Below, piece after piece: positions 42,979 through 45,887 of a stretch of DNA of 64,000 bases. How positions within the stretch are numbered: the first letter of the stretch is position 1; every line of letters starts with the position of its first letter. Where the stretch lies: NCBI GenBank assembly GCA_019358915.1, contig JAHHIM010000073.1, positions 64,001 through 128,000 of the forward strand, given 5' to 3'. Below the pieces are notes generated by a model. That model was not told the DNA's origin and ran no database searches. It saw only the letters and a program-made list of their open reading frames with translations. The position numbers and the translations under genes were made by a program. The DNA comes from Trichormus sp. ATA11-4-KO1. GTDB taxonomy: Bacteria; Cyanobacteriota; Cyanobacteriia; Cyanobacteriales; Nostocaceae.

Positions 42979-43295
42979 TTTGTTAAATTATTATTTGTTT
43001 TGAGGAAAATATCATAGTTGTTTTTATCAAAAAATTTTAGCATTTGATGTACTAAAAAGATTAACTTTATTTAAATTAAAATTAATTTTCATTCTGATAT
43101 CTAAGATTGAAGTGTAGGTAATTATTATCGTAGATAAACAACAGTTGATAAAATAGCAAAAATTTAGTGCGATCGCTATTATATTCTGGTTTATGGAAAG
43201 AGTTCCAGAAACGAGGATTGGCGATCGCACTGTGTAATTTCTCTCATGAATGTTTCCCATGAGAGAATAATCAACTTGGTCAAGTAAAGGCTTAG

Positions 43296-43463
43296 TTAAT
43301 GACCACGGCGATCGCGTCCAGATCCACGATCATAGTGAAGGTCGCGATCATAAACATAGCTATAAAGAGGTAGGCGTATAACAGTATTAGTTCTCTGAGC
43401 AACAGCCGCAGATGACATAGACGCCTTCCAACCTACAAACGAGACAGAGGTGAAGCGATTCAT
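43296..43463 (-). CDS. Small ORF encoding an RGSGR-containing peptide (PatS/PatX-like candidate)
   Basis: Manual translation: MNRFTSVSFVGWKASMSSAAVAQRTNTVIRLPLYSYVYDRDLHYDRGSGRDRRGH*; alternative ATG at 43418 preceded by GGAAGG. Confidence 0.55.
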   Translation of the reverse strand: MNRFTSVSFVGWKASMSSAAVAQRTNTVIRLPLYSYVYDRDLHYDRGSGRDRRGH

Positions 43464-43987
43464 AATTTGAGTTTGGTAAGTTGATGGTAATTTCTACAAG
43501 CGCAGGAAGTTTACGAAGAGAAGATTCCACAAAGCTTTGGATATATTCTAGCAAAATTATGAGTTATGCAGCAGCAGTACACGCCATATTAAAGTTACAG
43601 CCGTAGTCACATAGGTGAGGACAATATTGATGCAAGAGAGCAATGAAGCAACTGGTTTGATACTCAGCACTTTGCTATACATGACAGCCGCACAACGTTC
43701 TGTCCTCAGCTTGAAGACGATTCTTACCAAAGAAGGACTAACTATTAGTAACGCGATTGCTATCGTTAATGCATAACAATTATTACTGGATGGGTGTTAT
43801 GCCGCAGTGACCCATTGTTGTGTATCGAAGGAGAGCGATTTCAGATACATAAACAGTACTTAGAGTAACCATGAAAGATGTGGAGTTTTTATCGCTTCCT
43901 CCACTTAGTTATCACCAAGGGAAGTTTAAATACTTCATCAGAGCGGTCTGAGGTGATAAATTTCTGGTATCTCTTCTAGTAATCATG

Positions 43988-44063: not shown

Positions 44064-45887
44064 CTATTGCTGAAGTTGGGCGATCGCTTGCATAATTTGT
44101 TGATAATACTGTGTATTTCCTTCTTGATAATAAATATCAGCAGATTTTTGGAAATCGCTAATTGCAGCTTGATAATCTTCTAGCTTACGGTGAATATCAG
44201 CCCGCAGCATGTAAGCTGAAGCCCAATGAGGCTGACGCTGTAAAGCTGCGTTTAAGTCGGCTAGTCCCCCTGGTAAATCTCCCAGCAAAGAACGGCTACG
44301 TCCTCGGTTATACCAGTCTTGGGCCAAGCTGGAATCGATAGCAAGTGCCTGATTATAATCTTCTATTGCTCCTTGATAGTCTTGCAGAGCATAGCGAGCA
44401 TTAGCGCGATCGCTATAAAATGTGGCTGATTGGGGATTTCTTTGTAAAGCTTGGGTATAATCGGCAACTGCACCCTCATAGTCTTGGAGGGCATAGCCAA
44501 GAGAACCCCGATTATAATAAGCTTCTACCAGATCGGGATTAATTTGTAAAGCTTGGTTGTAATCTGCCATTGCTCCCTTTTCGTCTCCGAGAAAACGCCG
44601 AGCATTACCCCGATTGCAGTAGGCTGGGGAAAATTCAGGCGAAAGCTGTATTGCTTGAGTGTTATCGGCAATTGCTGATAAGAAATCTTGTAAAATTTCA
44701 TAAGCAATACCTCGTCCATAATAAGCTTCAGCTAAATTCTGATTAATCTGCAATGCCAAATTGTAATCTTGGATTGCCCCTTGATAATCTCCCAGACTAC
44801 GACGAGCTGTAGCGCGATCGCAGTATCCTTCAGCTAGATGGGGATTAAGTTGTAAAAGTCGATTGCTATCTTCAATTGCTCCTTGATAGTCTCCCAATCG
44901 GCGACGAACGTTAGCCCGAAAGCCGTAAACTAAAGCTAAGGTAGGATTTGCCTGCAATGCCTGATTATAATCCTCGATAGCTCCTTGATAATCGCCTAAA
45001 GTGTCTCGCACCAAACCCCGTTCATAATATGCTTGGACATCATCAGGGTTCAGTTTCAGCGCTTGGTTAAAGTCTGCAAGTGCCTGCTCGTAATCTTTGA
45101 GGCGAGAATAAACAAGACCCCGATTATAATAGGCTTCAGCAAAGTTGGGGTTAATATCCAATGTGCGATTGTAATCTTCAATTGCACCTTGATCGTCTCC
45201 TAGGGCAAAGCGGGCAATGCCTCGGTTATGATAAGCTGCTGCCAAGTTAGGATCGAGTTGTAATGCGCGATTATGCTCAGCGATCGCTTGCTGATATTCT
45301 CCTAAAAGATAGTTGATATTACCGCGACTAGTGTAAGCTGCGGCAAAATGGGGATGCCATTGTAATGCTTGCTGAAAATCGGCGAGCGCTCCTTGATTAT
45401 CGCCGCGATCGCAACGAGCTACACCCCGATTATGCAATGCCTTGGCAATATCAAAATTAATACACGTAGCTAACTGAGTGCTATTTTCGATTGCTTGCTG
45501 ATAATCGTTGATCGCTTGGTCATATGCTTGCAAAGCAAAGTAGGCATTACCCCGGCTATGATAAGATGCCGCAAAGTTGGGATTGATTTGTAATGCCTGA
45601 TCATGATCGGCGATCGCTCCCTCATAATCTGCTAAAAAGTAGCGTGCATTAGCTCGGTTGCAGTACGCTTCCGCCAGATGGGGATTGATTTGTAATGCTT
45701 GATCAAAGTCGGCGATCGCTCCGTGATAATCTTTGAGTTCAGCGCTGAGAATAAGACCTCGGTTGTAATAAGCTTCGGCATAGTCGGGATTCATCTCAAT
45801 CGTCTGAGAGTAATCTGCGATGGCTTCTTGATAGTCCCCTTGCAAATGTTTGTGGAATCCCTGCTTGAAAAATTCGTCAGCATTCAT
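44064..45887 (-). CDS. Tetratricopeptide repeat protein (TPR over essentially the whole length)
   Basis: Repeated 34-aa AEAYYNRG...GDYQGAIEDYNQALQINP units. Confidence 0.95.
   Translation of the reverse strand: MNADEFFKQGFHKHLQGDYQEAIADYSQTIEMNPDYAEAYYNRGLILSAELKDYHGAIADFDQALQINPHLAEAYCNRANARYFLADYEGAIADHDQALQINPNFAASYHSRGNAYFALQAYDQAINDYQQAIENSTQLATCINFDIAKALHNRGVARCDRGDNQGALADFQQALQWHPHFAAAYTSRGNINYLLGEYQQAIAEHNRALQLDPNLAAAYHNRGIARFALGDDQGAIEDYNRTLDINPNFAEAYYNRGLVYSRLKDYEQALADFNQALKLNPDDVQAYYERGLVRDTLGDYQGAIEDYNQALQANPTLALVYGFRANVRRRLGDYQGAIEDSNRLLQLNPHLAEGYCDRATARRSLGDYQGAIQDYNLALQINQNLAEAYYGRGIAYEILQDFLSAIADNTQAIQLSPEFSPAYCNRGNARRFLGDEKGAMADYNQALQINPDLVEAYYNRGSLGYALQDYEGAVADYTQALQRNPQSATFYSDRANARYALQDYQGAIEDYNQALAIDSSLAQDWYNRGRSRSLLGDLPGGLADLNAALQRQPHWASAYMLRADIHRKLEDYQAAISDFQKSADIYYQEGNTQYYQQIMQAIAQLQQ

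Follow-up and report, generated by a model that had tools for sequence, protein, structure and literature searches.

The minus strand of the window, the whole 64,000 nt stretch of Trichormus sp. ATA11-4-KO1 DNA that was analysed, carries at 43296..43463 a 55-codon open reading frame that is a real gene, and the hexapeptide DRGSGR encoded towards its 3' end is under purifying selection as protein. The gene is neither patS, patX nor hetN. On balance, we favour the view that it is a lineage-specific precursor of an extra HetR-inhibiting hexapeptide, which would be of separate origin and would probably act without Sec export. Translation of 43463-43296 gives exactly the 55 residues reported in a previous sequence-only reading of this DNA, and the neighbours named there are both recovered by Pfam: a CYTH-domain gene (PF01928; 42514..42978, minus strand) lies downstream, forming a syntenic marker at 19/19 loci, and a TPR-repeat gene (44064..45887, minus strand) lies upstream at 17/19. 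The same reading considered the gene to be unannotated; however, public collections already include a gene call for this very protein, with the orthologues filed as 'hypothetical protein', and a 40 aa call starting at the second ATG (43418) is also present. Neither Pfam nor the PDB sequences contain a match to the 55 aa protein, and a word-based protein search with the single sequence as query found only one relative.

A search profile built from 18 orthologues was run against 389 genomes of the family, 19 of which, including this one, gave a full-length match. These represent five genera, which by their named records are Nodularia, Anabaenopsis, Chrysosporum, Cyanocohniella and Umezakia, the Nodularia/Anabaenopsis lineage; in the other 118 matching genomes it was the N-terminal part that matched, bar a few weak longer matches. 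There were no matches in 283 sampled genomes from other families of the order, nor any trace of the gene at the CYTH loci of outgroups (four genomes, being those with a CYTH match among ten). An unindexed search of 1.84 billion representatives returned one unrelated WD40-type repeat protein and five members of 55-56 aa, further 50%-cluster representatives in which each match ends with DRGSGR intact; a metagenome scan added two loci of the gene among 39 candidates. Eighteen of the 19 orthologues are intact, 17 of them being 55 aa and one 56 aa long, and all 18 stop at TAA. In Anabaenopsis elenkinii the reading frame shifts after codon 25, beyond which DRGSGR can still be read in the new frame; either the gene can be lost or the assembly is in error, and this copy was excluded from the codon counts.

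The motif alone is not above chance, as the sequence-only reading had cautioned for a single RGSGR: it occurs 15 times in the six frames of the 5.97 Mb genome, and its 30 letter permutations occur 5-23 times. When preceded by D or E and lying outside ORFs of at least 150 codons, RGSGR is found five times, against 0-1 for each of the other 29 permutations. The instance considered here is above chance because it is conserved in the orthologues. DRGSGR (codons 45-50; 43314..43331, minus strand) is present in 18/18 intact copies and is their sole run of six invariant residues, a run that site shuffling produced in 0.14% of trials. Across these codons pN is 0 and pS is 0.36, the CYTH gene having a pS of 0.40; there are seven extra states at third positions and none at first or second positions, and every change is silent. 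Parsimony on the CYTH tree assigns the motif no amino acid and 16 silent changes, compared with 135 and 33 in the other 48 codons (Fisher p 8e-11), a contrast that is inflated since the silent count is too low wherever a codon's residue also changed, leaving silent changes outside the motif undercounted. The five other frames, two on the same strand and three on the opposite, contain stops in 18/18 orthologues. The comparison with relatives that had been suggested, looking for conservation of the frame and of RGSGR, synonymous substitution and synteny, came out in favour of the gene on each count. The sequence GCGATCGC adjoins the RGSGR motif, and it is true of this genome that the motif abuts a HIP1 site, as had been remarked; however, HIP1 is present in only two of the 18 orthologues, and an origin of the motif as a HIP1 artefact is rejected.

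An extended -10-like element had likewise been proposed at 43545-43553, and TGCTAGAAT is indeed found there on the minus strand (43553-43545), the form TGCTA[AG]A[AG]T being conserved 81-82 nt before the ATG in 18/18 orthologues. The transcript start would be at about 43538, giving a 5' leader of approximately 75 nt (43464..43538, minus strand). Beyond the coding sequence, a hairpin, TTCTCTCATG ... CATGAGAGAA (43239..43267, minus strand), is the likely transcript end; 17 of the 18 orthologues are predicted to have a corresponding stem, and it was not called as a canonical terminator. Four RNA runs, of 24 listed, were aligned to an orthologue at 80% likeness. Contigs from three studies span the leader and ORF; counted from the -10 hexamer, one ends flush at +8, one at +7 with eight loose letters and one at about +13. 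The fourth run covers the whole region. As such contigs give neither strand nor level, they point weakly to a start in the vicinity of 43538. The available parts of the PMC3610870 supplements contain no match for the orthologue in a table of transcription start sites. In the supplement of PMC5853447, as far as it was accessible, the orthologue lies between genes for TPR and 'adenylate cyclase' and is entered as a singleton with no assigned function; the expression table searched there gave no entry under its tag.

The promoter region agrees with the observation that TCCGGA (DIF1) does not occur upstream: none of the five TCCGGA sites of the window is nearby, and none is present at the -35 position in the 18 orthologues. 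GTA-N8-TAC and GGG-N5-CCC were not found upstream of the orthologues either, such that no DIF1, NtcA or HetR site there links the gene to heterocyst development. DIF1 is the -35 element of HetZ (PMC13342950), and as it is absent the gene is probably not under this heterocyst sigma factor.

The leader is the most conserved part of the locus, more so than the coding region, with a p-distance of 0.062 where the CYTH gene has a pS of 0.40. Outside the motif, pN/pS is 0.6-1.3 and silent sites differ at 0.16-0.21, again versus 0.40 for CYTH; over codons 2-44 both rates come to roughly half that of silent sites in CYTH, a hint that the RNA is under additional constraint. Along with the frameshifted copy, these values are what would be expected if the conserved entity were an RNA comprising the leader and hairpin, with the ORF a decaying remnant of a secreted protein and RGSGR incidental. 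This seems very improbable, given that the motif changes are all silent and at third positions, that length and stop are fixed in 18/19 copies and that this is the sole open frame. Nor is there covarying structure: RNAalifold called no pairs in the leader, a hand-set two-helix model left 91.5% of cells paired with no compensatory changes, and Rfam has no match for it. A leader upstream ORF of about 20 codons, with a GTG or TTG start, was rejected, as a one nucleotide insertion breaks it in one orthologue and the stop is missing in this genus. The locus is very probably a translated gene selected for its motif.

The intergenic gap had been described as otherwise empty, but contains two other features. 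One is a CyVA-1 RNA at 43783-43859 on the plus strand (Rfam RF02965, 74 bits), followed by around 100 nt (to 43960, plus strand) that lie outside the Rfam model and are conserved together with CyVA-1 in many genomes of the order; the RNA and its extension are found at the DRGSGR gene locus only in this genus. A 26-codon ORF at 43871-43951 was rejected as coding sequence, its ATG being present in two of six loci compared. The other is an 82 nt MITE-like repeat (window positions ~43600-43681) that has inserted approximately 50 nt upstream of the -10 element and is not found in the sister genome; this genome has 21 copies of at least 65 nt.

Codons 1-27 (43383..43463, minus strand) encode a decayed Sec-type signal peptide homologous to those of secreted Arg/Asp/His-rich proteins. 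Matches to the promoter-leader and first codons were obtained in 151 of the 389 genomes, a few of these being short, weak matches elsewhere in the query. Forty-three leader-type loci were examined, 37 of them with an N-terminal match (two duplicates, five without the leader). All 37 encode signal peptide proteins, mostly with tails rich in Arg, Asp, His and Tyr, and none contains RG[ST]GR. These small secreted proteins of the Nostocaceae, which are unnamed and fall within no Pfam or NCBIfam family above cut-off, share the same promoter-leader (~73-87% identical) and are homologous to the first 27 residues of the DRGSGR protein; they differ from it in having an intact signal, 70-182 residues, low-complexity tails and other neighbouring genes. 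Within this Arg-rich family there are RYDRDN repeat, His/Arg-rich and RTCTGRNRY types, mostly at one copy per genome. In a tree of leader plus N-terminus with 47 rows, from which eight duplicate or leaderless rows had been dropped, a branch with 100/99 support separates the 18 RGSGR rows from all others; as the tree is unrooted, the direction of evolution is judged from the Arg-rich types being the more widespread. The leader and N-terminus share ancestry with the secreted Arg-rich family, and the export signal has decayed.

The extent of this decay bears on how the product would act. The best 12-residue hydropathy is 0.67 here and 0.67-1.80 in the 18 orthologues, compared with 1.92-2.60 in the 37 relatives and 1.96 in this genome's own PatX, and in several lineages the core includes charged residues (K13 here, E14, D15). 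The position homologous to the cleavage site is residues 25-27, which are A-D-A in relatives and T-N-T here; an A-x-A is found there in 30/37 relatives and 0/18 orthologues. A cleavage-like AVA-Q had been pointed to instead, but AVAQ occurs in two of the 18 orthologues and does not lie at the homologous position. Similarly, the second ATG at 43418, with GGAAGG upstream, is present in this genome as noted previously, yet across the orthologues this ATG is kept in 14/18 (the first in 18/18) and GGAAGG in 2/18. Type I signal peptidase can accept the small residues T, S, A and N, and residues 25 and 27 are usually one of these. Taken with the homology of the N-terminus to clear signal peptides, and the invariance of M1, R3, F9, V10, G11 and S18 among the orthologues, this would suit a convergent PatX, in which a weak Sec signal still exports the 28-residue remainder, the periplasmic peptidase PatP cuts it, and DRGSGR is taken up by adjacent cells, where it inhibits HetR. 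The layout is also that of PatX, and in the ESM Atlas the protein has PatX clusters as neighbours, whose values of 0.80-0.82 make them no more than a lead. However, the low hydropathy, the charged core, the loss of A-x-A from all 18 orthologues and the 40 aa call from the second ATG make this unlikely, and we prefer a precursor acting without Sec export.

Known carriers of the motif are encoded elsewhere. Canonical patS is on contig C31, with TCCGGA upstream, and patX is on contig C72, where TCCGGA precedes the motif by 246 nt (225-246 nt in five clade genomes); in five other clade genomes examined, patX and patS are also separate from the DRGSGR gene. None of five family members matched the PatS model NF047415, for which a clade patS control scored 34.1 bits, or the PatX model NF047413, for which a true clade PatX scored 93.7 bits; the latter finds another locus in 5/5 genomes, and never the DRGSGR locus. 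With 19 orthologues, purifying selection on the motif and the genome's own patS and patX at other loci, the suggestion that this is a further RGSGR peptide gene, distinct from both, is supported.

The resemblances to these genes are nonetheless informative. PatS (Asl2301) likewise comes from a small ORF in which an acidic residue followed by RGSGR forms the essential part, has HetR as its presumed target and has a precursor that is probably cytoplasmic, as is proposed for the DRGSGR protein. In contrast, PatS has 13-17 aa with the motif at the C terminus, and the DRGSGR protein 55-56 aa with a five-residue tail (18/18); the residue preceding RGSGR is E in the former and D in the latter, upstream of which TCCGGA is absent. 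PatX (Asl2332), the 'alternative PatS' of Antonaru & Nurnberg 2017 (PMC5812504), consists of a signal-like N-terminus, a spacer, an internal XRG(S/T)GR and a short tail in less than 80 aa, as does the DRGSGR protein, which differs through its decayed signal, the lack of DIF1 and the ancestry of its leader and N-terminus in the Arg-rich family. The Pro-rich stretch before H/Y-RGSGR described for PatX in that paper, as far as its available text goes, is missing; instead there is L-N-F-D, and a single conserved Pro lies 13 residues upstream.

HetN is a long protein resembling short-chain dehydrogenases. It is also an RGSGR carrier besides PatS and PatX, and is also confined to one lineage; however, it is reductase-like (a 'putative ketoacyl reductase' in PMC4649674) with an internal ERGSGR, whereas the DRGSGR protein is 55 aa in length with no Pfam match. 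Across the six frames of this genome, RG[ST]GR is absent from ORFs longer than 126 codons, and a pattern for HetN-like context gave nothing relevant in five genomes.

With regard to the target, Hu et al. 2015 (PMC4649674) show PatS6 bound to the HetR hood through E253, D270 and D278, and propose that the mature ligand is probably XRGSGR, where X is any residue. The HetR of this genome keeps R223, E253, E254, D256, D270 and D278, and the invariant block of the DRGSGR family is exactly six residues, matching the XRGSGR footprint. A complex prediction for the HetR dimer with residues 26-55 scored 0.00, and as the controls did not fold it weighs neither way. Overproduced RGSGR reportedly inhibits in several contexts. 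Peptides bind HetR better when the N-terminus is short and the C-terminal carboxyl is free (PMC4649674), and DRGSGR has 44 residues before it and five after, with no processing site conserved. Cytosolic PatX without its signal neither bound HetR in a two-hybrid assay nor blocked differentiation, and became active once its peptidase was co-expressed (Xu et al. 2025, PMC12756182), indicating that processing is needed.

The mechanism that we propose is as follows. A gene for a secreted Arg/Asp/His-rich protein would have kept its promoter-leader and N-terminus and lost its repeats, the export signal decaying and the DRGSGR hexapeptide becoming fixed. The gene would be transcribed on its own from the extended -10 promoter, independently of DIF1, and the 55 aa product, probably cytoplasmic and acting without Sec export, would be trimmed at both ends to DRGSGR. 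By the known mechanism this peptide may then bind the HetR hood cleft and release HetR from DNA in the manner of PatS6 and PatX6, and so could restrain differentiation together with PatS and PatX, the lineage having no RGSGR-bearing HetN. In its translation, processing, target and phenotype, the gene is put forward as a candidate.

The motif might instead have been selected for something else, as a decoy or competitor for the peptidases or exporters of PatS and PatX or for HetL-type pentapeptide-repeat proteins, or as a modulator of HetR in akinetes, hormogonia or necridia. There is no heterocyst-type promoter, the leader also precedes genes whose secreted products are of an envelope type, more than one RGSGR ORF is present in a single genome, and the untrimmed protein may not act on HetR (PMC12756182), all of which would fit such a role. 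We nevertheless consider it rather improbable: in the available text of PMC7761841, PMC4649674 and PMC7476756, HetR is the sole partner shown for the motif; the conserved block fits the length of a HetR ligand; and a part played by HetR in another cell fate would still amount to HetR inhibition, as in the proposed hexapeptide precursor.

No paper describing the gene was found in the literature searched; since the genome-wide survey of Elhai & Khudyakov 2018 lies outside it, novelty is provisional. Three RG(S/T)GR carriers are named by Khudyakov et al. 2020 (PMC7761841), where all three are reported to occur together in only a small group of strains, and the accessible text of Antonaru & Nurnberg 2017 (PMC5812504) lists only classic and alternative PatS for Nodularia. 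The available portions of PMC12669612 and PMC7476756 contain no description of the gene. The current model of heterocyst patterning rests on those three carriers, to which a fourth of separate origin would be added if our reading is correct; the HetR cleft would then have recruited new peptide genes repeatedly, and the steps by which a secreted-protein gene became a developmental signal could be traced here. As N. spumigena CCY9414 is reported, in the part of Voss et al. 2013 (PMC3610870) available, to be without hetN, hetC and hetL, the DRGSGR gene could fill HetN's place, and would be a candidate for the upkeep of spacing in such a lineage. It is fixed in the lineage of the bloom-forming Nodularia, Anabaenopsis, Chrysosporum and Umezakia. 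A wider and more doubtful conjecture is that there exists a hidden, lineage-specific set of independently evolved RGSGR genes, in which the DRGSGR gene, formerly a secreted repeat-protein gene, took over the job of HetN in the Nodularia lineage as a HetZ-independent, vegetative cell brake on HetR, and two other families, A4 and A5, might tie HetR to other signals.

Other RGSGR ORFs were also observed in this genome. Two of them belong to conserved small-ORF families. A4 (C65:315400-315600) has a hydrophobic N-terminus followed by F-L-D-RGSGR and is found in 16/389 genomes, 15 of which have the motif; five are fused to a DUF4174-type domain, the rest being free-standing and ending soon after the motif. 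A5 (C5:155875-156060) comprises short ORFs with D/E-RGSGR at or near the end. It is found in 19/389 genomes, including Nostoc-type genera, with the motif in 21/21 loci and silent variation in its codons, although its profile consists of two sequences and weak matches are biased towards the motif. At 14 of the 21 loci A5 lies behind the same gene, which on its sequence appears to encode a response regulator, and A5-related 'VNIKNDERGSGRF' ORFs are found at other loci. A 75-codon ORF at C28:6040-6270, with neighbours that look mobile, has a hydrophobic core, a Pro/Cys-rich spacer and a C-terminal ERGSGR, and falls below the cut-offs for both PatS and PatX; at C55:93206, a short ORF ending in DSRGSGR-stop is situated beside phage-like structural genes.
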